NCBI GenBank assembly: GCA_965215155.1
Contig: CBDCCY010000001.1
Coordinates: 455,416-519,415, forward strand
Origin: Vicinamibacterales bacterium
GTDB taxonomy: Bacteria; Acidobacteriota; Vicinamibacteria; Vicinamibacterales; UBA8438
Length of the DNA stretch: 64,000 nt
Reading direction: 5' to 3'
The notes under the pieces are model-generated. The model searched no databases, had not been told where the DNA came from, and was given only the letters and a program-made list of their open reading frames with translations. Below, piece after piece: positions 6,585 through 58,424 of the stretch. Position numbers and translations under genes: made by a program. Position 1 is the first letter of the stretch. Each line of letters begins with the position of its first letter.

Positions 6585-6764
6585 CGCGCGAAACGGTCAC
6601 CGATGCCGACCGCGGCACATCGCTCGGGAGCGCTCGCCGGCGGGACGGGGAGGGTGGGCACGCCGGGGTTGCCGCCGGGGCGCGCGGTTCCTTCCGGGAG
6701 GCGCGGGTCCGCTCGACGATCGGGTATTCTCAGGGCTTCGTATCCCCTGTCGCCAGGAGTAGCC

Positions 6765-7778
6765 GTGACCCTCCGCCAGAGTCTGCTTCTCGCATGCGCC
6801 GCGGTGCTGGCGTGGCCGCCGGCCGCCGCGGCCCAGGACCACCCGGGCGCAGCCGCCTACCGGCAGGTTTGCCTGCTCTGCCACGGGACGGCGGGCAGGG
6901 GCGACATCGCGCCTCCGCTCGTGCCCCTCGGGTTCGACGCCGACTACGTCCTGGCGGTGGTGCGCGAGGGCTTCGGCCAGATGCCGCCCATCTCGACGCG
7001 TGAGCTGAGCGACGACGACGTCCGCCAGGCCGTCGGCTATCTCGCGTCTCTGGGGGCAGCGCCGTCCGCGCAGACCGCGGCGTCCGCCTACGACGGCCCG
7101 CGCACGCCGGAGGGACAGCCCGACCTGAACGGCATCTGGCAGGTGGTCAACGCCGCGGCCTGGGACATCCGGCCGCACAACGCGCAGGACGGCGTGCCGG
7201 CCGGGCTCGGCGTGGTCGAGGGCGGCGAGATTCCCTACCAGCCGTGGGCGGCCGAGCGGCAGGAAGCCAACTACGCCAACCGCTTGGAGGACGATCCGGT
7301 GCGGCAGTGCTTCCTTCCCGGGGTGCCGCGCATCACCTACATGCCGTTCCCGTTCCGCATCCTCCAGACGCCGGACCACGTGGTGATCACGTACGAGTTT
7401 GCGCACGCGACGCGCATCATCTATACGGACGGCAGCCCGCATCCGCTCCCCAACGACTTCTGGATGGGCGACTCGCGCGGCCACTGGGAGGGCGACATCC
7501 TGGTCGTCGACACCACCCACTTCAACGGGCGCACCTGGTTCGATGCCGCGGGCAACTTCCACAGCGACGCGCTGCACGTCGTGGAACGCTACACGCCGGT
7601 CACTCCGTATCATCTCGACTACCACGTGACGATAGAGGATCCGAACGTGTTCACGAGGCCGTGGACGATGCGGATGCCGATCTACCGCCGGGTGGAGGAC
7701 GGGCTCCGACTACTCGACTACGACTGCGTCGACTTCATTCTGCAAACGCTGACCGCCCCGGAAGGAGAGGCACGATGA
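6765..7778 (+). CDS. Secreted fusion of a mono-haem cytochrome c domain to a conserved domain of unknown function (paralog 1 of 3)
   Basis: GTG at 6765 after AGGAGT. Signal peptide present. CLLCH haem motif plus downstream Met (GQMPP). C-terminal domain shares the GDSRGxWEGDxLVV and IEDPNVFTxPWT blocks with 7775..8752 and 44743..45783. Confidence 0.7.
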   Translation: MTLRQSLLLACAAVLAWPPAAAAQDHPGAAAYRQVCLLCHGTAGRGDIAPPLVPLGFDADYVLAVVREGFGQMPPISTRELSDDDVRQAVGYLASLGAAPSAQTAASAYDGPRTPEGQPDLNGIWQVVNAAAWDIRPHNAQDGVPAGLGVVEGGEIPYQPWAAERQEANYANRLEDDPVRQCFLPGVPRITYMPFPFRILQTPDHVVITYEFAHATRIIYTDGSPHPLPNDFWMGDSRGHWEGDILVVDTTHFNGRTWFDAAGNFHSDALHVVERYTPVTPYHLDYHVTIEDPNVFTRPWTMRMPIYRRVEDGLRLLDYDCVDFILQTLTAPEGEAR

Positions 7779-8752
7779 CCCATCGTGGTGTCGGTCCCGT
7801 CCTCGTTGCTGCCATCGCGCTGCTCGGTGCGGCGGCGGCATTGCCGCCGGCCGCCCAGGCCCAGGAGGAAGCGAAGGGAGCCTTCGAGCCTCCGCGCACG
7901 CCGTGGGGCGACCCCGACTTTCGCGGATACTTCCTGCCCGGCCCCTACCAGCCGCTGGAGGCGCCGGCCGGCGATCCCTGGGTCCCGCCCGAAGGATCCA
8001 ACCGCGGGCAGGGCGCGGCCTTCTCCCGCTTCTTCGAGCCCGACCCCGACGACACAGGCCCCGACTTTCTTTCTTCGCCGATGATCGTCGACCCGCCGGA
8101 CGGCAAGGTGCCGCTGCAACCCTGGGCGGCGGAGCGGCGCGGCGAGGTCATGGCGCGGCAGGACGAGCTCGCTCTGCTCGACCCGCGCGTCAAGTGCCTG
8201 CCGTCCGCGCTGCCGCGCGCGCACCTGCCGGTCGGCTACAACACCTACCAGGTGCTCCAGGTCCCCGGCTACGTCGTCATGCTGTATGAATGGAACCACC
8301 TGTCGCGCTACATCTCGCTGAGTAACGATGAGCGGCCGCCGCTCCCGCCCGAGATCCGCCTCGGCATGGGCGATTCGCGGGGCCGCTGGGAAGGAGACAC
8401 GCTCGTCGTCGAGACGAGCCACTTCACGGCCAACACCTGGCCGGTCGGCCACGGCGCACCGCCGGAGGGCGCCCCGGCCAGCGCCCTGACGACGGGGCAC
8501 GGGGTGTTCCACAGCGGAGACCTTCGCGTCACGGAACGCTTCACGATGACCGATGCCGACACGATTCGCTACCGGGCGACGATCGAGGATCCGAACGTGT
8601 TCACGCAGCCGTGGACGATCGAGATCGACGCGCTCCGGCGCGCGCCCGAGGGGCACATGCTGTTCGAGTATGCCTGCCACGAGGGCAACGGCCGCAACCT
8701 CGAGCTGATGACGGGGTCCGACGTGAGCACGGCCCGGGTAGGTGTGCGCTAG
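7775..8752 (+). CDS. Secreted protein of unknown function (paralog 2 of 3)
   Basis: ATG at 7775 overlaps the upstream TGA (ATGA) and follows GAAGGAGAGG. Signal peptide ends AAQAQ. Shares PRTPWGDPDFRGYF, GDSRGRWEGDTLVVE and IEDPNVFTQPWT with its paralogs. Confidence 0.7.
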   Translation: MTHRGVGPVLVAAIALLGAAAALPPAAQAQEEAKGAFEPPRTPWGDPDFRGYFLPGPYQPLEAPAGDPWVPPEGSNRGQGAAFSRFFEPDPDDTGPDFLSSPMIVDPPDGKVPLQPWAAERRGEVMARQDELALLDPRVKCLPSALPRAHLPVGYNTYQVLQVPGYVVMLYEWNHLSRYISLSNDERPPLPPEIRLGMGDSRGRWEGDTLVVETSHFTANTWPVGHGAPPEGAPASALTTGHGVFHSGDLRVTERFTMTDADTIRYRATIEDPNVFTQPWTIEIDALRRAPEGHMLFEYACHEGNGRNLELMTGSDVSTARVGVR

Positions 8753-8914
8753 GAGTCTGCGCCGTAGAACGGCGACGACTCCGGGAGGGTTGGTTGGGCA
8801 CCGGGCGGAGCCGTCAGGCGACGCACGGTGGGCTAGCGCGCCCTCGCGGGCGCGTTGGGAGTCTGCGCTGGCACGAACCGCTCCATGGCACGTTTCTGCG
8901 GCGCAGACTCCTAA
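8749..8914. repeat. Composite CTAG-bounded palindromic MITE/REP-like element: unit B 8749-8836 plus unit A 8833-8914
   Basis: Near-identical in reverse complement to 26025-26191. Unit A is near-identical to 42023-42102. Inverted repeats GGAGTCTGCGC / GCGCAGACTCC and hairpin GCGCGCCC-TCGC-GGGCGCG. CTAG at 8749 and 8833, CTAA at the far end. Confidence 0.85.
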
Positions 8915-8991
8915 CTGACGGCGACGACTCCGGCGGGCTTGCTGCCAGCGCGTGCGCAGGGGCTGGGTGAGAGACGAGTCGAGGGATTCCG

Positions 8992-9432
8992 ATGGGACGA
9001 ATGACTACACGCTCCGCGTTGTGGAGACTCGCGCCGGGACTCGCCGCCGCTTCGCTCGGCCTGCTGGCGGCTGCGGTTCCCGCCGGGGCGCACCACGCCT
9101 TCTCGGCCGAGTTCGACGCCGACCGGCCGTTGCGGCTGGAGGGGACGGTCTCGAAGACCGAGTGGATCAATCCGCACTCGTGGATCCACATCGACGTCGT
9201 CGGCGAGAACGGTCGGGTGGAGACCTGGGCCATAGAGTGTGGTGCGCCGAACGCGCTGATGCGCCGCGGCCTCAACAAGAACTCCGTCCCGGTCGGCACC
9301 GAGCTGGTCATCGAGGGCTTCGGGGCGAAGAACGGATCGAACACCGCCAACGCCCGAGACATAACCTTCCCCGACGGATCGACCTTCTTCGTCGGCTCGT
9401 CCGGTACCGGGGCGCCCTACGAGCGAAGGTAG
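8992..9432 (+). CDS. DUF6152-like small secreted protein
   Basis: 146-aa ORF. Signal peptide ends AGAHHAFSAEFD (mature N-terminal HH..F motif). WINPHSWIHIDV block. Confidence 0.6.
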   Translation: MGRMTTRSALWRLAPGLAAASLGLLAAAVPAGAHHAFSAEFDADRPLRLEGTVSKTEWINPHSWIHIDVVGENGRVETWAIECGAPNALMRRGLNKNSVPVGTELVIEGFGAKNGSNTANARDITFPDGSTFFVGSSGTGAPYERR

Positions 9433-9452
9433 CGCTCCCTGACGGGCGCGCG
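9430..9452. repeat. Solo hairpin module of the CTAG-element family
   Basis: TAGCGCTCCCTGACGGGCGCGCGG matches the first 24 nt of unit A (CTAGCGCGCCCTGACGGGCGCGTT) at most positions. Its TAG is the stop codon of 8992..9432. Confidence 0.5.
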
Positions 9453-9459
9453 GCCGGCG

Positions 9460-10014
9460 TCAGGCCAGGGTGAACGTGACCAGCATGTTGCTGGCGACCG
9501 GCGCTTCGAGCTCCGGTGCATAGCTGGCCAACCGGTTGCCCACGCCGCCTACCGGGACCGTGACGTACTGCCGCCCGTCGACGGCATACGTCACCGGGTA
9601 GCCGGTGATCCCGCTGCCCGGAATCGTCTCCCACAGCACCTCGCCGGTTTCGGCGTCGAACGCCCGCAGACGGCGGTTGAGGTCCCCGAAGAAGACGAAG
9701 CTGCCCGCGGTGGCCAGTGTCGAGCGGGCGTTCGGGGCGCGCTGGCTGTCGCGCCAGACTTCCCGGCCGGTCGACATGTCGATGGCGCGCACCTCGGTCA
9801 GATCCCCATCCTCCTCCAGGCCGGGCTCCGGGATGGTGAACCGCGGGCTGGCGCCGGAAACCATGCGGTCGTTCGCCGCCTGGTCGAGGCAGGAGCGGTT
9901 GAAGGGGATGCAGAGCATCCCGGTCATGGGGCCGTACGACCAGGACCACCAGCCCTTGACGTTGTGGCCGCAGATGACGAAGCGCTGGCCGACCTCGCGC
10001 GCCACGAGGTGCAT
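9460..10014 (-). pseudogene. Remnant (C-terminal about 180 aa) of a PQQ-dependent alcohol/methanol-type dehydrogenase
   Basis: The 184-aa ORF covers only the last propeller blades (ICGHNVKGWWSWSYGPMTGMLCIPFNRSCLD, LRAFDAETGEVLWE, YAVDGRQYVTV). Full-length relatives are about 570-600 aa. The upstream sequence 10015-10238 is in another frame. Confidence 0.7.
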
Positions 10015-21719: not shown

Positions 21720-21894
21720 CCACCCTCCGAGTCCGCGCCGTCACACGGCGGACTCCCGGCCCGCCGATCGTCGCCTGACGGCTCCGCGCGCTGCCCCGCA
21801 GGCCCACTGTCCCCAGGAGTCTGCGCCGCAGAACGTGCCATGGAGCGGTTCGTGCCGGCGCAGCCTCCCAACGCGCCCGTGAGGGCGCCGCTAG
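21720..21894. repeat. CTAG-element family copy (rearranged unit-B-like part plus unit A in reverse, 21813-21894)
   Basis: AGGAGTCTGCGCCGCAGAACGTGCCATGGAGCGGTTCGTGCC...CCCAACGCGCCCGTGAGGGCGCCGCTAG. The terminal CTAG (21891-21894) contains the glgP stop codon. Confidence 0.75.
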
Positions 21895-25694: not shown

Positions 25695-25982
25695 TCATCG
25701 GGATGCGAAGCCGTTCCGCAACTCGCGTTCCGCTTCCAGCCAGTCGTCGAGCGGGCCGCCCGAGCGGTTCGGATCGAGCGAGAGGAAGTAGGCCCGCTCG
25801 GCAATCTGGGTCTCGGTCGGCTCGACGGCCGGTGCGGCCGCGACCGGCGCAGGCGCCGCGGAGGGCTTCCGCGTCGCGGTCGCGGTGCGCCGGGGCGGCT
25901 TGCTGCGCGGCTCGGTCTCGCGCGCACGCTTGGCCGCGGTTCGAGGTTGTGTCGCTCGCTTCGCCGTACGCGTCTCCTTCAT
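25695..25982 (-). CDS. DUF2934-like small basic protein
   Basis: ATG at 25982 after GGAGG. C-terminal IAERAYFLS...DDWLEAERELR motif is characteristic of DUF2934. Confidence 0.6.
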   Translation of the reverse strand: MKETRTAKRATQPRTAAKRARETEPRSKPPRRTATATRKPSAAPAPVAAAPAVEPTETQIAERAYFLSLDPNRSGGPLDDWLEAERELRNGFASR

Positions 25983-26024
25983 GGTTCCTCCAACGCGTCC
26001 CTGACCGAAGGTCCGCAGCCAACC

Positions 26025-26191
26025 CTGGGAGTCTGCGCTGCAGAACGTGCGATTGCGGCTACCTCGTGCCCGCGCAGACTCCCAACGCGCCCGCAAGGGC
26101 GCGCTAGCCCACCATTCGTCGCCTGACGGCTCCGCCTGGTGCCCAACCAACCCTCCAGGAGTCCGCGCCGTTCTACGGCGCAGACTCCTAG
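26025..26191. repeat. Composite CTAG-bounded element (unit A reverse 26025-26107, unit B reverse 26104-26191)
   Basis: Reverse complement of 8749-8914 with few mismatches. CTAG at 26104 and 26188. Short hairpin GGAGTCCGCGCCG-TTCTA-CGGCGCAGACTCC. Confidence 0.85.
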
Positions 26192-26518
26192 CGCCGAGAT
26201 GTGTTCGAGCGGTGTCGAGCCTGTTCCGTCGTAACTCGATGCCCTCGCCCGACAAGGACAAACTGCAAAGATCGCGCCGGGCACCGTTCCACGGACGGGT
26301 GCCGCTCCCGTGGCCGCAACACCCTCCCCATCAAGTAGTTGCCGGAGACGGTCGGCCTGCGGCCAGGCCGGCGCGCCGTGCCCGCGAGACTACGAAACCG
26401 TCAGCGGTTGGAGCTGACGCGACGTTCCTGTGGTTCGGGTGAGTCCGAGCCGAGGACGCTGCCGAAGAGACCGACGAGAAACCGGACGCTTGCGGGGACG
26501 GACGCAGGCGGGCCGCCT

Positions 26519-28447
26519 TCAGTCAGGGAGCAAGAATAGCACGCCGAGCGGGGGCAGGGTGAGGCGCAGCGAGTGGGGACGCCCGTGAGCCGGCACGTCA
26601 TCGGCCGCGCGGCGTCCGAGGTTGCCGCTTCCGCCGCCGCCGTAGCACGTCGCGTCGCTGTTGAGGCGCTCGCGCCACGCGCCGCCGCGCGGGACGCCGA
26701 TGCGGTAGTCGAACCGCGCCACGGGAGTGCAGTTGCAGGCCACGACCAGCGGCCGCCCGCGGCGGTCGCGCCGGAGGAAGCTCAGGACGCTGCTCGCCCG
26801 GTCGTCGCACGCGATCCACTCGAAGCCCGCGGGCTCGGAGTCCAGCTCGTACAGGGCCGGCTCGCTCCGGTAGCAGCGGTTGAGGTCGCGCACCCACCTC
26901 CGCAGCCCCCCCTTGAGCGGGTCGTCCAGCAGATGCCAGTCGAGGCTCTCGGCCGGCGTCCACTCGCGCGCCTGCCCGAACTCGTTGCCCATGAAGAGGA
27001 GCTGCTTGCCGGGGTGGCCGACCATGAATCCGAACAGCAGCCGCAGGCTGGCGTGCCGTTGCGCCTCGTCGCCCGGCATCCGCGCCAGCAGCGAGCCCTT
27101 GCCGTGGACCACCTCGTCGTGGGAAAGGGGCAGGACGTAGTTCTCGCTGAAGGCGTAGACGAGGCTGAACGTGAGCTCGTCCTGGTGGTGGCGGCGGTGG
27201 ACCGGGTCGCGCGCGAAGTAGCGCAACGTGTCGTTCATCCAGCCGAGGTTCCACTTGAAGCCGAAGCCGAGCCCGCCGGCATCCACCGGGGCGGTAACGA
27301 GCGGCCACGCGGTCGATTCCTCGGCCACCATCATGATGCCGGGATGCGCCGCGGGGACCCGCTCGTTCAGGCGCCGCAGGAAATCGACCGCGTCGAGGTT
27401 CTCCCGGCCCCCGTCCCGGTTCGGCACCCACTCGCCGTCGGCCCGCCCGTAGTCCAGGTAGAGCATCGAGGCGACCGCATCTACGCGCAGCCCGTCGACG
27501 TGGTACGCGTCGCACCAGAAGAGCGCGCTGGCGATCAGAAAGTTGCGGACCTCGCGCCGGCCGTAGTTGAAGATCAGCGAACCCCAGTGCGGGTGGTCGC
27601 GCTGGCGCGGGTCGGCGTGCTCGTAGAGATGCGTGCCGTCGAAGCGCGCGAGCCCGTGTTCGTCCTTCGGGAAGTGGGCGGCCGACCAGTCGACGAGGAC
27701 TCCGATTCCGCGCCGGTGGAGGGTGTCGACGAGCGCCATGAACTCCTGCGGCGTGCCGAAGCGGCTCGTCGGCGCGAAGTAGCCGAGCGTTCCGTAGCCC
27801 CAGGACTCGTCGAGCGGGTGCTCCGCGACCGGCAGCAGCTCGACGTGCGTGAAGCCCATCTCGGCCGCATAGTCGGCCAGCCGCGGGGCGAGGTCGGCGT
27901 AGGTGAGCCAGCCTCCGGACCCGGGCACCCGCATCCAGGAGCCGAGGTGCACCTCGTAGACCGAGATCGGCGCATCGTGCGCCTGTCGGGCGGCGCGCTC
28001 CGCCATCCAGCCCCGGTCGCCCCACGCGTAGCCGGACAGGTCCCAGACGCGCGAGGCGGTGCGCGGGCGCGGCTCGCTGGCGAACGCATGGGGGTCGGCC
28101 TTCTGCACGGCTTCGCCGCCCCGCGGCCGGACCTCGTACTTGTAGAGGGCGCCGTGGCCGGCGTCCGGGACGAAGGCCTCCCAGACTCCCGCTTCGGCGC
28201 GCAGGCGCATGGGGTGCGCCGCGCCGTCCCAGCCGTTGAAGTCGCCGACGACCGCGACGCGGCGCGCGTTCGGCGCCCAGACCGCGAAGTGCGTCCCCTC
28301 CGACCCGCGGTGCCGCGTGACGTGGGCGCCGAGCTTGTCGTAGCTGCGCTCGTGCGTCCCTTCCGCGAGGAGGTGCAGATCGAACTCGGTCAGGAAGGGG
28401 GAGCCGGAGCCGCCCGCCCGGGCACGTGACGACACGCCAGTAGGCAC
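26519..28447 (-). CDS. glgB: 1,4-alpha-glucan branching enzyme
   Basis: [25 protein letters not shown]-terminus. GH13 motifs [41 protein letters not shown]. Confidence 0.92.
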
Positions 28448-28564
28448 GCGGCCCGCCGTGCTACGCGGGCGCAGGCGGTTCCACCCGCACCGTCAGCACG
28501 TCGGTGTCCTCGGGATCGTAGCGCAGGTCCCGCACGCCGCCGGCGGACGTCGAGGTCATGGTGG

Positions 28565-28639
28565 CGGTGGCGCGCCCCTTCGGGCGCACCGATCCTATTA
28601 CACGGCCGGCCGCTAGCGGTCTGCGCCGCAGACTCCTAG
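28565..28639. repeat. Degenerate or internally deleted CTAG-element remnant
   Basis: Hairpin GCGCCC-CTTC-GGGCGC at about 28571-28586, then CTAG-CGGTCTGCGCCGCAGACTC-CTAG (CTAG at 28613 and 28636). Confidence 0.5.
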
Positions 28640-28661
28640 ACTGCGCAGGACGGGAGGCGTC

Positions 28662-30113
28662 ATGGCTCCGCGCGTCGCGATCGTCAGCTCCGAGGCGACG
28701 CCCTTCGCGAAGACCGGCGGTCTCGCCGACATGGTCGGCGCGCTGGCCGCGTCCCTTACGCGCCAGGGCGTCGACGCCAGCCTCGTCCTGCCCGCCTACC
28801 GCAGCGTCCTGCGCCGCCAGGACATCGTGCCGACCGGGATGAGCTTCGCGGTGCCGGTCGCGGACGGATTCGAGCGCGCGGACGTGCTCGAGTGGGCAGC
28901 CGGTGCCGGCACGCCGGCCTTCTTCGTGCGGGCGGATCGGTTCTTCGACCGCGAGGGTCTGTACGGGCCGCCGGGATCGGAGTACGCCGACAACGCCGAC
29001 CGGTTCGCGTTCTTCGGGCGCGCGGTGCTGGAGCTGCTCGCGCGCAGGGGGCCGCCGGACGTGCTGCACGGCCACGACTGGCAGTCGGCCTTCGCCGTCG
29101 CCGTCCACAAGCTCCAGCGGGAGCGGCAACCGGGGCTCGGCACGGTGCGCTCGATGCTGACGGTGCACAATGTCGGCTACCAGGGGCTCTTCGACGCGGA
29201 GGCGTTCCCGCGGCTGCTCGTACATTCCGCTGCCTACTGGCCCCACTTCGAGTTCTACGGCCGGATCAGCTTCCTGAAGGCGGGCCTGACCCTGGCCGAC
29301 CGGCTGACGACGGTCAGTCCCACCTACGCGCGCGAGGTTCTGACCGCCGAGCAGGGCCGCGGCCTCGACGGCGTCTTCCGGGAGCGGTCCGCCGACCTGA
29401 CGGGGGTGCTGAACGGCGCGGACTACGAGGTGTGGGACCCGTCCGTCGACCCCTGCCTCGCCCGCCGCTACTCGGTGGATGACGTGACGGGCAAGCGGGA
29501 CTGCAAGGTCGACCTCCGGCGACGCCTCGAGCTGCCGGACGCCGGCGGCCCCCTGCTCGGAATGGTCGCCCGCCTGGTCGACCAGAAGGGGGTCGACATC
29601 GTCGCGGGCGCCGCCGCCGCCCTGCTGGACCGCGAGCTGCAGCTCGTGATTCTCGGCACCGGCGACCCCCGCTACGAGGAACTCCTGCGCGAGATCGCCG
29701 GCCGCGCTCCGGCGAGGGTCGCGGTGCGCATAGGCTTCGACGACGAGCTGGCCCACGTCATCGAGGCAGGGAGCGACATCTTCCTCATGCCGTCCCGCTA
29801 CGAGCCGAGCGGCCTGAATCAGCTCTACAGCCTGCGCTACGGCACCATCCCGATCGTGCGCGCCACCGGCGGCCTCCGGGACTCGGTAACGGCCTTCGAT
29901 GCGGCGACGGGGGAGGGCACGGGCTTCGTGTTCGAGGACTACTCCTCCGAGGCGCTCGTGGAGGCTGTCGACGAGGCGCTCGACTGCTACCGCCGGCCCG
30001 AAGCGTGGGCCGCCCTGATGCGGAACGCGATGCGCCAGGACTTCTCCGTGGACCGCGCCGCCGCGCGCTACGCCGAGCTCTACGAGGAGCTCGCACCCTC
30101 CGGCCGGGCATGA
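28662..30113 (+). CDS. glgA: Glycogen synthase (GT5)
   Basis: ATG after GGGAGG. VSSEATPFAKTGGLADMVGAL N-terminal motif. PSRYEPSGLNQLYSLRYGTIPIVRATGGLRDSV C-terminal motif. Confidence 0.92.
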   Translation: MAPRVAIVSSEATPFAKTGGLADMVGALAASLTRQGVDASLVLPAYRSVLRRQDIVPTGMSFAVPVADGFERADVLEWAAGAGTPAFFVRADRFFDREGLYGPPGSEYADNADRFAFFGRAVLELLARRGPPDVLHGHDWQSAFAVAVHKLQRERQPGLGTVRSMLTVHNVGYQGLFDAEAFPRLLVHSAAYWPHFEFYGRISFLKAGLTLADRLTTVSPTYAREVLTAEQGRGLDGVFRERSADLTGVLNGADYEVWDPSVDPCLARRYSVDDVTGKRDCKVDLRRRLELPDAGGPLLGMVARLVDQKGVDIVAGAAAALLDRELQLVILGTGDPRYEELLREIAGRAPARVAVRIGFDDELAHVIEAGSDIFLMPSRYEPSGLNQLYSLRYGTIPIVRATGGLRDSVTAFDAATGEGTGFVFEDYSSEALVEAVDEALDCYRRPEAWAALMRNAMRQDFSVDRAAARYAELYEELAPSGRA

Positions 30114-41992: not shown

Positions 41993-42022
41993 GACAAGCC
42001 GCTGGCGCCCGGCGGACGCGTG

Positions 42023-42102
42023 CTAGCGCGCCCTGACGGGCGCGTTGGGAGTCTGCGCTGGCACGAACCGCTCCATGGCACGTTCTGCGCGCAGACTCCT
42101 AG
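42023..42102. repeat. CTAG-bounded palindromic element, unit A (80 bp), cleanest copy
   Basis: CTAGCGCGCCCTGACGGGCGCGTTGGGAGTCTGCGCTGGCACGAACCGCTCCATGGCACGTTCTGCGCGCAGACTCCTAG, with CTAG at both ends. The right-hand CTAG contains the stop codon of 42099..43007. Confidence 0.85.
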
Positions 42103-43007
42103 CCGTCGCTCAGCTCGTCGTAGGCCACGCCGAGCACGCCGGAGAGGCTGAGCAGCGCGAACGGCGAGATGTAATCGTCGAAGCCGTCGAGCGACTCGGT
42201 GGCCGTGATCTCGTCGCGGGAGCGGCCGGCCTGCATCTCGCGGCGCGTCAGCTCGAGGGCGGCGCTGAAGTAGTCGGCGAGGTGGGTGAGGTCCGCCTGT
42301 GTCCCGGTCACCCCGGCGGCGGGGCTCCCGTGCCCGAAGACGTAGATGGTGTCGGCATCGTGCGCGGCCACGACCTGCTGCAACGTGGTGATCCAGTTCG
42401 CAATCCGGGCTCCCGAGGACCGGTCCACGAAGGGATGCAGCCGGTTGAACATCAGGTCGCCCATGTGGACGACGTTGGCCTGCTCGAACGTCAACACCGC
42501 GTCGCCGCTGGTGTGTCCGGCGCCGTGGTGGCGCGCCACGATCGTCTCGTCCCCGACGGTCGTCTCCCATGTGTCGCTGAAGGTCACGTCCGGGAAGGGG
42601 TCGGCGCTCCCGGTCTGCTGCGTCGTCTGCCGCTGCCAGTCGGCGCTGTTCTCGTGGGCCACGATCGAGCCGACGACCGGCCGGAAGGTCCCGTTGCCGC
42701 CGGTGTGGTCGCCGTGGTGATGCGAGTTGATCAGCAGGTCGATGGCGCGGTCCGAGCGCTCGCCGATGCCGTCGATGCAGGCCTGCGCCGCCGCCGCGTT
42801 CTGGCTGTCGATGACGACGATGCCGTCGCCGTTGATCAGCCATCCGATCGTCCCGCCCTGGCCGTTGAAGATGCCCACGCCGCGCCGCAGGTCCTCGAAC
42901 GAGGTGACCAGCTCGCCCTGCTGAGCCCACCCGGGCGGGGGCCGGAGCGCGGCCGCCAGGGCCGTCATTGCCGAGGTGCCGAGAAACGTCCGCCTGTCGA
43001 TGATCAT
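42099..43007 (-). CDS. MBL-fold metallo-hydrolase with Tat signal
   Basis: MIIDRRTFLGTSAMTALAAALRPPPGWAQ. HHHGDH metal motif. RBS GAGGAG. Confidence 0.85.
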   Translation of the reverse strand: MIIDRRTFLGTSAMTALAAALRPPPGWAQQGELVTSFEDLRRGVGIFNGQGGTIGWLINGDGIVVIDSQNAAAAQACIDGIGERSDRAIDLLINSHHHGDHTGGNGTFRPVVGSIVAHENSADWQRQTTQQTGSADPFPDVTFSDTWETTVGDETIVARHHGAGHTSGDAVLTFEQANVVHMGDLMFNRLHPFVDRSSGARIANWITTLQQVVAAHDADTIYVFGHGSPAAGVTGTQADLTHLADYFSAALELTRREMQAGRSRDEITATESLDGFDDYISPFALLSLSGVLGVAYDELSDG

Positions 43008-44742: not shown

Positions 44743-45783
44743 ATGCAGCATCGATTCCTCGTTGCCGTGTTGGCGCTCGCGGCCGCGACGGCGCTGGCCC
44801 CCGGTCTCGCGGTTGCGCAGTCGCAGTCCGCCGCCCCACCGCCGGCGCCCGGCTTCGACACCGCGCTGACCGAGGCCGACGCCTCGGGCGCGGACTGGAC
44901 GCTGGGTCGCACGGCGTGGGGCGACCCGGACCTCCAGGGAATCTGGAACAACGTGACGGCGACGCGGCTCGAGCGGCCCGCGGACTTCGCCGACCGCGCC
45001 GAGCTGACGGCCGAGGAATCGGCCCAGTTCTCGGCCGAGCTCGCGGAGCAGCGCGCGGAGCGCGAGGCGCAGCCGCACACCGGATACGCGGCGAGCATCT
45101 GGTTCGAGTCGAGCGACCTGCTCGCCGGCAACCGCACCTCGCTGCTCGTCGATCCGCCGGACGGCCGGTTGCCGCAGTTGACGTCGGTAGCCGCGCGGAT
45201 GGCGGAGGTGGTGGCGGAGGCGCGCCGCGTCAGCCCCGCCGACACCTGGTGGGACCGCGGGCCCTACGAGCGGTGCGTGTCGCGCGGGCTGCCCGGGGCG
45301 ATGATGCCCGGCTTCTACAACCACAACTACCAGATCCTGCAGACACCGGACCACGTCGTCATCCTCGTCGAGATGATCCACGACGCGCGGATCGTCCCGC
45401 TGGACGGGCGCGACCACGTGGACGGCAACATCAGGCAGTGGCTGGGCGACTCGCGCGGCCGCTGGGAGGGCGACACGCTCGTGGTCGAGACCACCAACCT
45501 GCCGCACGTCGACCAGCGCGGCGTCGCGGTCTTCGGAACCAGCGAGCAGGGCCGCGTGATCGAGCGCTTCACCCGGATCGACGAGAACACGATGGACTAC
45601 CGGGTAACGGTCGACGACCCGGCTACCTTCACCGCCGAGTGGACGGCGTCGATCCCGATGCGGCGCATCGAGGGGCCGATCTTCGAGTACGCCTGCCACG
45701 AGGGGAACTACGGCCTGACGAACATCCTCGCCGGCCATCGCCGGGAGGAAGCCGAGGCTGCGGCCGCTCTCGCCGCTCGGTAG
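44743..45783 (+). CDS. Secreted protein of unknown function (paralog 3 of 3)
   Basis: ATG after GGAGAGG. Signal peptide ends LAVAQSQ. WGDPDLQGIWNN, ILQTPDHVVILVE, GDSRGRWEGDTLVVETTN and VDDPATFTAEWT are shared with 6765..7778 and 7775..8752. Confidence 0.7.
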   Translation: MQHRFLVAVLALAAATALAPGLAVAQSQSAAPPPAPGFDTALTEADASGADWTLGRTAWGDPDLQGIWNNVTATRLERPADFADRAELTAEESAQFSAELAEQRAEREAQPHTGYAASIWFESSDLLAGNRTSLLVDPPDGRLPQLTSVAARMAEVVAEARRVSPADTWWDRGPYERCVSRGLPGAMMPGFYNHNYQILQTPDHVVILVEMIHDARIVPLDGRDHVDGNIRQWLGDSRGRWEGDTLVVETTNLPHVDQRGVAVFGTSEQGRVIERFTRIDENTMDYRVTVDDPATFTAEWTASIPMRRIEGPIFEYACHEGNYGLTNILAGHRREEAEAAAALAAR

Positions 45784-50549: not shown

Positions 50550-50778
50550 AGCGCATGCGAGGCTCGCCCTCGCGGCCGTCACCGATCGAGGCGCCGTCGT
50601 CGGACGCCGACACTCGCGCCGGGTGCGCAGGCCTGAGAAAGGTACGCAGGACAGGCATCGGATCGATGCGGGCGGCGGGGGCAGGACAGGGACTCGGAGC
50701 GGTGCGGGCGGCGGGGCGCGTGCCTCGCGGGACGAGGCGCACGGCCGGCGCAACGCTACCGCCAGCGCCGCGCCGGCC

Positions 50779-50915
50779 GGCGCGCCGGGGCGTCAGGTCA
50801 GCGTCCCGATCCGCCCCGTGCTGTCGCCGAAGCTGTCGACGTGCCTTCCGGCGCGCCGGGGCGTCAGGTCAGCGTCCCGATCCGCCCCGTGCTGTCGCCG
50901 AAGCTGTCGACGTGC
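50779..50915. repeat. Perfect 66-bp direct duplication (period 71 bp) that includes the 3' end of the DUF1552 gene
   Basis: 50779-50844 is identical to 50850-50915 (ggcgcgccggggcgtcaggtcagcgtcccgatccgccccgtgctgtcgccgaagctgtcgacgtgc). Confidence 0.95.
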
Positions 50916-55040: not shown

Positions 55041-56675
55041 ATGCGGGTCCTGACGAACCTTCTCGCCGGTCTTTCTCTCGTCCTGCTTCCGGCGGCCGAC
55101 GCCGGCGCCGCGGGTCCGAGGACCGCGAGCGCGCGCGCGGCCGGCGGCGCGGGCGGCAGTGCCGTGGCCCCCGCGGCGGATCTGCGGCTCGTGGAGGCGA
55201 TGGCGGAGCGCGACACGGCCCGCGTGCGGGCGTTGCTCGCCCGCGGCGGCCTCGACGTGAACGTGGCGCGGGCCGACGGGGCGACGGCGCTGCTCTGGGC
55301 GGCCCACTGGGACGACGGCGAGGCGGCCGAGCTGCTCCTCGACGCCGGAGCCGACGTCAACGCGGCGGACGATCACGGCGTGACGCCGCTCGCCCGCGCG
55401 TGCGAGAACGCGAGCGCGCCGATGGTCGAACGGCTCCTGGCGGCCGGGGCGAATCCGAACGCGGCCCAGGCCAACGGGCTGACGCCGCTGATGACGGCCG
55501 CGCGCACGGGCAGCCTCGACGTCGTGCGGGCGTTGCTCGCGCGGGGCGCCGACGTCGACGCGGTCACTGCCGCCACCCACGAGACGGCACTGATGTGGGC
55601 GGTCGCCGGGCGGCACCGGGAGGTCGTCCGCGCGCTGCTCGAGCGGGGCGCCGACGTCCATCCCCAGCCGCGGCAGGCGTTCTCGCCCCTCGTCGCGGCC
55701 GCGCGCACCGGCGACATCGAGACGGCCGAGCTGTTGCTCGCCGCGGGGGCCGGCGTGGATGAGACCGGTTCGGACGGGGCGCATCCGCTGGCCTACGCGG
55801 TCATCGTCGGGCAGAGCGCGTTCGCCCACTTCCTGCTCGAGCGGGGTGCCGACCCGAACGGGGCCGTCGACGGGGTCACGGCGCTGCACGCCGCCGCCGG
55901 ACCCGTCCGCACGTGGCTGAAGGCGTGGAACCGCAAGCACGGCGGTGCGGGCGCGCGGGCCGGCCGGCTCGGGCTCCGGGAGCGGCTGCCGCTGGTCGAC
56001 GCCCTGCTGGACCGCGGCGCCGACCCCAACGCGCGCATGACCGCCTCCGACGTGACGGAGCAGGGGTTCGTCCGGAACGGCGCCTACGACACGTTCGCGA
56101 CCGGCACGGGAGACGTGGCCGGGGCGACGCCGCTGTGGGTCGCCGCGTTCGCGACCAACCCCGGCCCGGGCCGGATGCGCAACGGGTGGAGCACGCACCG
56201 CTCCACCGGCGAGGTCCTGCGCCGCCTGCTCGCGGCGGGCGCCCGGCCCGAGATCACGTCGAACGACGGCACCACGCCGATGATGGCCGCGGCCGGCTGC
56301 GGGCGGTGGGGGCACTGGACGAACACGCCGCGCGCCTCCCGCCAGCCGATGGCGGAGGAGGCCATCGGGATTCTCATCGCCGCCGGCATGGACGTGAACG
56401 CCACCAACGAGGGCGACTTCACGGCGTTGCACTGCGCGGCCTTCAGCGGCCTCAACGAGGTGGTTCGCCTGCTCGTGGACCACGGCGCCGACATCGACGC
56501 GCGCGACTGGCGGGGGCGGACGGCGTTCCGCCTCGCGGAGGGCGCCAAGCAGTCGTTCCACTACCAGGCGTGGCCGGAGACGGCGGCGCTGCTCGCGGAG
56601 CTCGGCGCCGACACCCGCCTGGGGATCCCGGGGACCATCCACGAGCGCCTGCGGGGGCTGGTGGCGACGCCGTAA
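55041..56675 (+). CDS. Secreted ankyrin-repeat protein (copy 1)
   Basis: ATG after GGAGGAG. Signal peptide present. Multiple ANK units (GATALLWAAHWDDGEAAELLLDAGADVNAADDHGVTPL...). Confidence 0.8.
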   Translation: MRVLTNLLAGLSLVLLPAADAGAAGPRTASARAAGGAGGSAVAPAADLRLVEAMAERDTARVRALLARGGLDVNVARADGATALLWAAHWDDGEAAELLLDAGADVNAADDHGVTPLARACENASAPMVERLLAAGANPNAAQANGLTPLMTAARTGSLDVVRALLARGADVDAVTAATHETALMWAVAGRHREVVRALLERGADVHPQPRQAFSPLVAAARTGDIETAELLLAAGAGVDETGSDGAHPLAYAVIVGQSAFAHFLLERGADPNGAVDGVTALHAAAGPVRTWLKAWNRKHGGAGARAGRLGLRERLPLVDALLDRGADPNARMTASDVTEQGFVRNGAYDTFATGTGDVAGATPLWVAAFATNPGPGRMRNGWSTHRSTGEVLRRLLAAGARPEITSNDGTTPMMAAAGCGRWGHWTNTPRASRQPMAEEAIGILIAAGMDVNATNEGDFTALHCAAFSGLNEVVRLLVDHGADIDARDWRGRTAFRLAEGAKQSFHYQAWPETAALLAELGADTRLGIPGTIHERLRGLVATP

Positions 56676-56742
56676 GGACTCGCAGCGAGCCCCGGCGGAG
56701 AGATATCCGACCGGCCAGGCAGACCCGATGAGGAGGCCACCC

Positions 56743-58380
56743 ATGCGCGTTCCGAAGAAGCGTCTCGCCGGCCTGTGCCTCGTCCTGCTCCCGGTGGCGG
56801 GCGGGAGCGCGCCTGTCGCGGGAGCGGCGGGCGGCAGTGCGGCGGGGCAGAGCGCAGCCGGACGCGGTGTCGCGGCCGCCGCCCCGGACCTGCGCCTCGT
56901 GGAGGCGATGGCGGAGCGGGACACCGCGCGGGTGCGGACGCTGCTCGCCGGTGAGGGGTTCGACGTGAACGCGGCGCGGGCCGACGGCGCGACGGCGCTG
57001 CTGTGGGCGGCCCATTGGGACGACCGCGAGGCGGCGGAGCTGCTGCTGGGGGCGGGCGCCGACGTGAACGCGGCGGACGACCACGGCGTGACGCCGCTCG
57101 CCCGGGCCAGCGAGAACGCGAGCGCGGCGATGGTCGAGCGGCTGCTCGCCGCCGGCGCGAACCCGAACGCGGCCCAGGCCAACGGACTGACGCCCTTGAT
57201 GACGGGCGCGCGCACGGGCAGCCTCGCGGTGGTGCGAGCCCTGCTCGCCCGCGGCGCCGACGTCGACGCCGCCACCGCCGCCACCCACGAAACCGCGCTG
57301 ATGTGGGCGGTCGCCGGGCGCCACCGGGACGTCGTCCGGGCGCTGGTGGAGCGGGGGGGCGACGTGCATCCGCAGCCGCGGCAGGCGTTCTCGCCGCTGA
57401 TCGCCGCGGCCCGGAACGGCGACCTCGAGACGGCCGAGGTGCTCCTCGAAGCGGGTGCGCGCGTCGACGACCGCGGGTCCGACGGGGCGCATCCGCTCGC
57501 CTACGCGGTCATCGCCGGACAGAGCGCGTTCGCGCACTTCCTGCTCGAGCGGGGCGCCGACCCCGATGGGGCGGTGGACGGCGTCACGGCGCTGCACGCC
57601 GCCGCCGGCTCCGTCCGCCCCTGGCTGAAGGCGTGGAGCCGCAAGCACGGCACACGGGCGGGCCGGCTCGCCCTGGACGAGCGCCTGGCGCTGGTGAAGG
57701 CCCTGCTGGCCCGCGGCGCCGACCCCAACGCGCGCATGACCGCATCCGACGTGACCGGGCAGGGCTTCGTCCGGAACGGGGCCTACGACACTTTCGCCAC
57801 CGGCACGGGCGACGTGGCCGGCGCGACGCCGCTGTGGGTGGCCGCCTACGCGACGAACCCCGGCCCGGGCAGCTCCTCCTTCCGGGGGCGCCGGCCCACG
57901 CCGAGCTCGAACGGCGCGATTCTGCGCAGCCTGCTCGCGGCGGGCGCCCGTCCCGGCAGCACGCCGCGCGACGGCACGACGGCGCTCATGGCCGCGGCCG
58001 GCTGCGGGCGCGCGGCGCACCTGACCAACGTGCCGCGGGCGCCGCGCGTGCCGACGGCGGAAGAGGCCGTCGACATCCTGGTCGAGGCCGGCCTGGACGT
58101 GAACGCCGCCAACGAGGGCGACTTCACGGCGCTGCACTGCGCGGCCTTCAGCGGCCTGAACGAGGTGGTGCGGCAGCTCGTCGAGCACGGCGCGGACATC
58201 GACGCGCGCGACTGGCGGGGCCGGACGGCGTTCCGTCTTGCCGAGGGCGCCAAGCAGTCGTTCCACTACCAGGAGTGGCCGGGGGTGGCGGCCCTGCTCG
58301 CGGAGCTCGGGGCCGACACCAGCCTCGGCATTCCGGGCATCATCCACGAGCGCCTGCGCGGGCTTCTGGCGGCCCGGTAG
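56743..58380 (+). CDS. Secreted ankyrin-repeat protein (copy 2, tandem paralog)
   Basis: ATG after GAGGAGG. Collinear with copy 1 over its whole length with high amino-acid identity. Confidence 0.8.
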   Translation: MRVPKKRLAGLCLVLLPVAGGSAPVAGAAGGSAAGQSAAGRGVAAAAPDLRLVEAMAERDTARVRTLLAGEGFDVNAARADGATALLWAAHWDDREAAELLLGAGADVNAADDHGVTPLARASENASAAMVERLLAAGANPNAAQANGLTPLMTGARTGSLAVVRALLARGADVDAATAATHETALMWAVAGRHRDVVRALVERGGDVHPQPRQAFSPLIAAARNGDLETAEVLLEAGARVDDRGSDGAHPLAYAVIAGQSAFAHFLLERGADPDGAVDGVTALHAAAGSVRPWLKAWSRKHGTRAGRLALDERLALVKALLARGADPNARMTASDVTGQGFVRNGAYDTFATGTGDVAGATPLWVAAYATNPGPGSSSFRGRRPTPSSNGAILRSLLAAGARPGSTPRDGTTALMAAAGCGRAAHLTNVPRAPRVPTAEEAVDILVEAGLDVNAANEGDFTALHCAAFSGLNEVVRQLVEHGADIDARDWRGRTAFRLAEGAKQSFHYQEWPGVAALLAELGADTSLGIPGIIHERLRGLLAAR

Positions 58381-58424
58381 CCGGCCGCGGCGGATGTGCG
58401 AGCGCTCCATTCCGGAGGAGTCGA

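Follow-up and report, generated by a model that had tools for sequence, protein, structure and literature searches.

Miniature TA-bounded elements in a Vicinamibacterales genome and their probable mobilization by an IS1182-family transposase

A family of short palindromic repeats is dispersed between the genes of a 64,000-nt stretch of the genome of a Vicinamibacterales bacterium (contig CBDCCY010000001.1; 72% G+C), referred to here as the window. We consider it probable that these repeats are non-autonomous transposons resembling miniature inverted-repeat transposable elements (MITEs), moved in trans by an IS1182-family transposase and inserting at the TA of CTAG. The elements are mobile, have defined ends, target the TA of CTAG and are flanked by a duplicated TA; their ends are identical to those of an insertion sequence whose transposase falls in the IS1182 family, and we infer that this transposase is the mobilizing enzyme. 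An initial annotation of the window had proposed non-autonomous mobile elements inserting at CTAG, a proposal borne out by the conserved ends, the empty and filled sites, and the partner insertion sequence. The kind of element is an ordinary one, a MITE; its half-element architecture is unusual.

Two unit types, A and B, recur in the window as four clear copies and two remnants, far above chance expectation. A blastn search with the segment 8749-8940 returned 26191-26028 (89% identity over 166 nt, E 8e-48), 42010-42108 (E 2e-25) and 21896-21815 (E 4e-24), and a repeat search and a MAFFT alignment agree with blastn on the copy pairs (repeat pairs I1-I3 and D11); the unit types were thus described, and their coordinates given, essentially correctly at the outset. 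The core GGAGTCTGCGC, with at most one mismatch, occurs 13 times in the window against 5.3 expected (none of 100 shuffles reaches 13), and the hairpin together with its TA (TAGCGCGCCC-N4-GGGCGCG, at most two mismatches) gives eight matches against 0.45 expected. All units are small (74-160 bp) and non-coding, the open reading frames (ORFs) within them being spurious high-GC frames only.

Copy 1 is a complete 160-bp element on the forward strand (8752-8911), composed of unit B (8752-8833), a central TA (8834-8835) and unit A (8836-8911); it lies between the duplicated TA at 8750-8751 and 8912-8913, with full inverted repeats facing outward at both ends. Copy 2 (26028-26188, reverse strand) is the same B+A arrangement reversed and is 89-94% identical to copy 1: unit A occupies 26028-26104, the TA 26105-26106 and unit B 26107-26188. 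It has a TA at 26189-26190 and another flank decayed to TG, and is located 45 nt 5' of the start codon (ATG) of a small DUF2934-like ORF, which is followed by glgC. Both of these elements had been credited with CTAG at ends that read otherwise: CTAA at the right end of copy 1 (8911-8914) and CTGG at the far end of copy 2 (26025-26028). Copy 3 (42026-42099, forward) is a solo unit A of 74 bp between TA dinucleotides at 42024-42025 and 42100-42101; its terminal base plus the right TA form the TAG stop of an MBL-fold gene on the reverse strand (42099-43007). Copy 4 (21728-21891, reverse) comprises a unit A (21816-21891), a linker and tail hairpin (21759-21813) and a small degenerate foldback (21728-21757), and its base 21891 plus the TA at 21892-21893 make the TAG stop of glgP (reverse strand). 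The region 21720-21894 was first read as a rearranged B-like part plus a reversed unit A; the unit A part stands, the portion 21728-21813 consists of a tail hairpin and then a small foldback, and the ~20 nt next to malQ belong to the original spacer rather than to the element. The two remnants are a solo hp1 hairpin (9432-9450, forward), located directly 3' of the TAG stop (9430-9432) of a DUF6152 gene and matching TAGCGCGCCCTGACGGGCGCG at 20 of 21 positions (9430-9450), and copy 5 (28570-28637, forward) in the divergent glgB/glgA spacer. The latter has a degenerate hp1-like hairpin (28570-28588; pattern match 28568-28588) and a loop-less foldback between two CTAGs (TA at 28614-28615 and 28637-28638); weak on its own, it is read as a remnant in the light of the family.

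The element ends, GGAGTCTGCGCCGYAGAA, form an 18-19-bp terminal inverted repeat. Unit B is built, in order, of a foldback, a G-rich linker and a tail hairpin ending in ...GGGC. The foldback, hp3 (8752-8782, forward), consists of the full 18-nt left repeat GGAGTCTGCGCCGTAGAA, which is the terminal repeat of the insertion sequence, followed by an inverted 13-nt partial copy; it forms a 13-bp helix in which ~95% of cells are paired over 41 distinct copies. The tail hairpin (8799-8830, forward) has a variable outer stem (CACCG/CGGTG) and a conserved core, CGGAGCC-loop-GGCGACG, with a tandem G.A. Unit A begins with the 19-nt hairpin hp1 (8836-8854, forward; GCGCGCCC-TCGC-GGGCGCG), which is present in every A copy, abuts the central TA and is followed by TTG. 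Its foldback (8858-8911, forward) contains an 11-nt partial left repeat, a 24-nt interior loop and the full 19-nt right repeat TTTCTGCGGCGCAGACTCC, identical to the right end of the insertion sequence; the two 11-nt core arms lie 32 nt apart, and the loop measures 32-33 nt instead of the ~38 nt first given. In the B+A arrangement the hairpin ends face each other over one TA, and the full repeats of 18 and 19 nt face outward as proper terminal inverted repeats, while a solo B or solo A has one full repeat and a hairpin at its opposite end. Folded as RNA, copy 1 reaches -102.8 kcal/mol (z -6.2), as expected from the early suggestion that the units fold into long GC-rich hairpins; its DNA fold and its opposite strand are also well beyond shuffles. 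The unit A loop (8869-8899) carries TGGCACG twice, and TGGCACG-N4-TGCG resembles a sigma-54 -24/-12 site; a sigma-54 promoter there was dropped, the TGGCACG...TGCG spacing being one or two bases short. Kinship of this loop with the subterminal region of the insertion sequence was likewise rejected as weak (p ~0.02 on the left, none on the right).

Mobility is most directly seen at copy 1. The DUF6152 protein beside it is encoded identically on four other contigs (L001-L004). One of these, a 156-kb contig of a sister strain from another sample (L001), is 99% identical on both sides and is without exactly 8752-8911 (160 bp); copy 1 is present in the other three. The empty site reads ...GTGCGC-TA-ACTGACGG... 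(GCGC-TA-ACTG), and the filled site in the window ...GTGCGC-TA-[GGAGTC...GACTCC]-TA-ACTGACGG...; the empty allele has a single TA and the filled allele two, so the TA was duplicated on insertion. The stop codon of the upstream gene is TAA in the empty allele and TAG in the filled one, where it is made of the left TA and the first G of the element. Between species, the site of copy 3 is an uninterrupted TAG with a spacer 78 nt shorter in two relatives (L128 and L129; MBL protein 89-90% identical). In relatives whose GlgB is 91% identical (L132), only TAG, 17 nt and TCA separate glgP from malQ at the site of copy 4, compared with ~165 nt of element in the window, and copy 2 is missing from the orthologous, otherwise conserved leader before the small DUF2934-like ORF. 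Empty and filled sites, named at the outset as a check, were thus found at the strain level (copy 1) and at the species level (copies 2-4).

Some further features accompany these sites. The region around copy 2 (25805-26519, reverse strand; compared with L130 and L132) contains a conserved ~310-nt leader 3' of the glgB stop, followed by the 95-aa DUF2934-like ORF (ATG at 25981) and then glgC. In three relatives (L131-L133), glgA and glgB are separated by a xanthine/uracil permease gene, where the window has a 215-nt spacer with copy 5 (28447-28662); this suggests that the gene may have been lost or relocated at an element site. Upstream of its empty site, the sister strain (L001 1-22) has a gene for a group II intron reverse transcriptase, located where its sequence and that of the window do not align. 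In two independent assemblies (L003 1-50 and L004 1-51), the sequence stops ~50 nt before the left end of copy 1, and the upstream gene is replaced by an unrelated flank of lower GC; this is probably a contig break or mis-join at the repeat.

The family extends well beyond the window; its confinement to this region had been named at the outset as a refutation. The exact 20-nt end pattern TAGGAGTCTGCGCCGYAGAA, scanned against one genome per species, was found in at least 119 stretches from many genomes; among the matches listed, most are metagenome-assembled genomes (MAGs) of Vicinamibacterales, and others belong to other Acidobacteriota classes, Longimicrobiales (Gemmatimonadota), several Gammaproteobacteria, Chloroflexota and Latescibacterota. 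On a Longimicrobiales chromosome, five inverted pairs of matches 1588 bp apart each bound a 1604-bp element with a single ORF of ~440 aa. Some 30 full copies of this insertion sequence, with the same repeats at both ends, were found in MAGs of Vicinamibacterales, Longimicrobiales and Gammaproteobacteria; the 31 copies with both ends defined are 1567-1734 bp long, and both ends read GGAGTCTGCGCCGYAG(G/A)A. The ~440-aa protein has the Pfam domains DUF772, DDE_Tnp_1 and DDE_Tnp_1_6. It passes the NCBIfam model for IS1182 transposases (NF033551; 370 and 374 bits, cut-off 270) and scores below the cut-offs of all four IS5 models (62-65 bits vs 140, 22.8-31.8 vs 275, 24-30 vs 110), so that the earlier suggestion of an IS5 or IS1182 partner was right on the IS1182 side. 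Homologs of the transposase with 60-100% identity adjoin the repeat in ~40 loci (tblastn); a cognate transposase with matching inverted repeats, as had been anticipated, does exist in related genomes. Derivation of the miniature elements from IS630/Tc1-mariner was rejected, the element that shares their repeats encoding an IS1182-type protein.

Symmetric small elements that carry both repeats around unrelated interiors occur in five phyla, and the shared repeats point to a widely distributed clade of elements. A Pseudomonadales MAG (L025 4644-4756, L033 951-1159) contains a 160-bp symmetric element with the same repeats and an adjoining hp1 hairpin; the stem arms of this gammaproteobacterial hp1 are those of the window (GCGCGCCC-N4-GGGCGCG), and the L025 loop is also that of copy 3 (GCGCGCCCTGACGGGCGCG).

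The target is defined by the flanks of the insertion sequence: of 31 copies, 30 have C-TA as their left flank and 30 have TA-G as their right flank, which makes the target CTAG. In the window and at other loci alike, the ends of the elements are conserved and flanked by TA or CTAG, as originally claimed. Where the flanks depart from this target (CTAG/CTAA at copy 1, GTAG/CTAG at L097, TTAG/CTAG at L049), G and C remain the terminal bases of the element, which favours a 2-bp duplication of TA and disfavours a 4-bp duplication of CTAG; CTAG was thus correctly recognized as the insertion target, and the duplicated part is its TA rather than the whole. CTAG is itself scarce, with 12 occurrences in the window against ~74 expected from trinucleotide counts (a depletion of about six-fold), 9 of the 12 being located within elements or at their edges. 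Insertion at C-TA-G recreates CTAG on both sides and so leads to tandem arrays and to pile-up at TAG stops: in a genome almost without CTAG the next insertion is likely to fall beside an earlier one, and elements are placed on stops because the stop codon is the other natural source of (C)TA(G/A). Accordingly, B-B dimers, B-A pairs, and B-insertion sequence and insertion sequence-A junctions share one TA, and in the fetched loci 50 of 246 array ends are the TAG of a long ORF with high GC3. The copies in the window are all intergenic, as first described, yet three of them share their TA with a flanking gene, whose TAG stop is formed by that TA and the terminal G of the element (8750, 42100 and 21892).

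We therefore propose the following course of events, in conditional terms. An IS1182-family DDE transposase would act in trans on the shared terminal repeat, pick the TA of a preferred CTAG and duplicate that TA. Its usable sites would be mainly stop codons of the form C-TAG and the CTAGs recreated at the ends of earlier insertions; the stop would be kept as TA plus the terminal G of the element, and copies would hence lie exactly on stops. Units would accumulate head to tail or head to head around one shared TA, with B and A as half-elements and the hairpin-to-hairpin B+A as the 160-bp unit whose presence varies between strains.

The half-elements also occur on their own. In 1 Mb of loci drawn from more than 20 genomes, nhmmer detected 78 B matches (E up to 1e-3), most of them solo or arranged in tandem and ~50 of close to full length. 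Solo B copies whose flanks are unrelated agree at 97-100% identity, whether they come from one genome or from different species, while genes shared by those genomes are ~66-72% identical in nucleotide sequence; B therefore moves, or has recently moved, as a TA-bounded unit. The same design, in which a full repeat folds onto a partial copy at one end and a GC hairpin meets the TA at the other, is shared by at least four unrelated subfamilies, with unrelated hairpins in those of C type (L005, L069, L087, L057, L052, L083) and of A' type (L067, L101, L047, L116, L016, L103). An insertion sequence lies against the hairpin end of a half-element in four loci (L038, L118, L086, L067) and probably in three more (L036, L072, L083); one or two adjoin the repeat end instead. 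This adjacency fits hitch-hiking as half-element-TA-insertion sequence composites, although it is not proof of it; such hitch-hiking, or use of the hairpin as a surrogate end, are our preferred guesses for how solo units move. More tentatively, and with the odds somewhat against it, solo units might be a distinct substrate of the IS1182-family DDE transposase, with a single foldback repeat and a covarying hairpin abutting TA as the second end, and/or might have been co-opted as sense-strand RNA structures of the 3' untranslated region (3'-UTR) placed exactly on stops. Within the loop of the B tail hairpin, an hp1-type hairpin unit was observed at L116 4383-4520 and 5543-5654 and at L009 3171-3280, so that even small hairpin modules can nest. 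Two loci (L021 and L045) were considered as orthologous B-B dimers, which would show constraint, and were discarded when alignment revealed unrelated flanks.

One alternative is an RNA-level function. The hairpins, having arisen from transposon ends, could have been selected by the host as 3'-UTR or leader RNA serving end protection, attenuation or protein binding, an explanation compatible with mobility that we nevertheless consider rather unlikely. Structure is conserved in the form it would predict: over the 41 distinct B copies, 94.7% of cells are paired, compared with 33-42% when partners are slid, and none of 500 shuffles equals the covariation score. The tail stem shows compensatory changes at three positions (CG/GC; AU/CG/GC/GU) around the invariant CGGAGCC...GGCGACG core with its tandem G.A, the one-sided changes in hp3 are almost all G.U and on the sense (given) strand only, and hp1 has a compensatory variant in other genomes (GCGCGACC/GGTCGCG, a C-G to A-T switch between subfamilies). 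Orientation is biased as well: in loci picked with a pattern that fixes the TA at one end, the gene 5' of B shares its orientation in 38 of 46 cases, the stop of that gene is the exact starting point of B in ~20 of 50, compared with 4 at the other end, and B lies between divergent genes in only one case; the subset not chosen by the search pattern has a like trend (7 vs 2). Between genomes, moreover, B is far better conserved than genes. Against such a role, recent transposition explains the high identity equally well, the covariation may mark just a few subfamilies, ascertainment may have inflated the stop count, and copies 3 and 4 show that unit A can take either orientation with respect to transcription. 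A scan of 8500-9600 found no terminator-like site with a U-tract and no promoter site, only TT after hp1, and Rfam gave no match at gathering score in the window, a search by E-value adding none (best sub-threshold score in 8700-8960, 14 bits vs 70). The initial annotation had offered terminator or mRNA-stabilizing hairpins as its own alternative; a canonical terminator is not supported, that scan having found no U-tract site, and an RNA role may coexist with mobility, given the sense bias, the covariation and the one-strand wobbles. Regulation of the CsrA type for the glycogen genes, whose cluster holds three copies, was dropped, the other copies and genomes having no such link.

Many of the same features would suit elements derived from repetitive extragenic palindromes (REP/REPINs) or from IS200/IS605 (PATE-like), in which a Y1 (HUH) enzyme takes single-stranded DNA hairpins and inserts them 3' of CTA without duplication, the second TA being borne by the element. 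Every module is a hairpin with covarying stems, wobble pairs fall on one strand only, orientation is biased, tandem arrays have each unit ending with the target sequence, and solo units are without a second inverted repeat; the single empty/filled comparison, too, fits a TA duplication and an element ending in TA alike. We nonetheless hold this origin to be quite improbable: B opens with 18 nt, and A closes with 19 nt, identical to the two ends of a DDE insertion sequence known from ~30 copies with the same flanks, and there are symmetric small elements that have both repeats. Y1 enzymes, sought with loose tblastn probes in ~1.06 Mb (the window and the loci), gave no match, a weak argument in that the REP-associated tyrosine transposases (RAYTs) are divergent. 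Finally, local segmental duplication or chance GC-rich palindromes without mobility can be dismissed almost outright, for although short palindromes are common at high GC, the copies match at E-values of 1e-24 to 1e-48, hundreds of related copies exist elsewhere, and the indel between strains is precise.

Several observations weigh against mobilization of the units by the IS1182-family transposase. A tblastn search with the IS1182-type transposase finds no homolog in the window, in keeping with the initial annotation, and the partner is known from other genomes; the tally of at least 119 stretches is a lower bound that carries no copy number per genome. One insertion sequence, at L092, fits a 4-bp duplication of CTAT better than a TA duplication. 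With one full repeat per solo unit, the standard two-end DDE reaction does not explain solo mobility. The covariation, the G.T wobbles on one strand and the sense bias exceed the needs of a passive MITE, and the orientation and stop statistics are open to ascertainment bias through the pattern by which their loci were picked; these features of structure and orientation could stem from what transposition requires, from the history of subfamilies, from ascertainment or from a role at the RNA level.

Other repeats in the window are of different kinds. Two tandem paralogous units of ~1.7 kb (55100-58400; 80-87% identical) have internal periodic repeats of ~100-200 nt and an ankyrin-type look; ankyrin-type repeat genes are often seen in host-associated bacteria. 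A 71-bp unit is directly duplicated in tandem with 94% identity at 50766-50907, and three paralogous genes share stretches 78-88% identical (6603-8752 and 44743-45783; repeat families D7 and D14), two of them in tandem just 5' of copy 1.

The elements thus represent a new pairing of a MITE with an insertion sequence, in which a previously undescribed miniature family and an IS1182-type insertion sequence share a clean TA-in-CTAG rule. They also exemplify targeting steered by scarcity, transposition in a high-GC genome with almost no CTAG being channelled into stop codons and earlier insertions. How a DDE transposase, or the host, handles the ends of one-repeat-plus-hairpin units is a testable question. 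In practical terms, the copies mark strain-level differences and apparently break metagenome assemblies, two contigs ending at copy 1. Vicinamibacterales are among the lineages associated with sponges (PMC8941161), as reported for the order and not for this genome. A literature search returned no description of these repeats, of IS1182-derived miniature elements or of MITEs in sponge symbionts.

The Correia elements of Neisseria and the RUP elements of Streptococcus pneumoniae are bacterial MITEs derived from DDE insertion sequences. The elements described here resemble them in being non-coding, ~50-160 bp long, multi-copy, intergenic and polymorphic between strains, with terminal inverted repeats, a TA duplication and long hairpins when transcribed; they differ in their IS1182-family partner, their CTAG target and the abundance of half-elements with a structured hairpin end. 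The REP sequences and bacterial interspersed mosaic elements (BIMEs) of enterobacteria and the BOX elements of pneumococci, whose partner is a Y1 RAYT enzyme or is not known, likewise form modular hairpin arrays at the 3' ends of genes, co-transcribed with them and in varying combinations; by contrast, the modules in the window lie between TA dinucleotides and share their ends with a DDE insertion sequence. Targets of the YTAR/CTAG type are known for IS5, whose transposases belong to the related DDE_Tnp_1 superfamily; unlike them, the partner described here scores below every IS5 cut-off. Within the IS1182 family (NF033551), a palindromic GGCC target has been reported for ISPsy36 (PMC8027508). 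The partner insertion sequence agrees with that family in its size (1.6 kb), its single transposase gene, its inverted repeats and its 4-bp palindromic target, whereas the window differs from IS1182 elements in holding non-coding derivatives only, at a CTAG target of which TA is duplicated.

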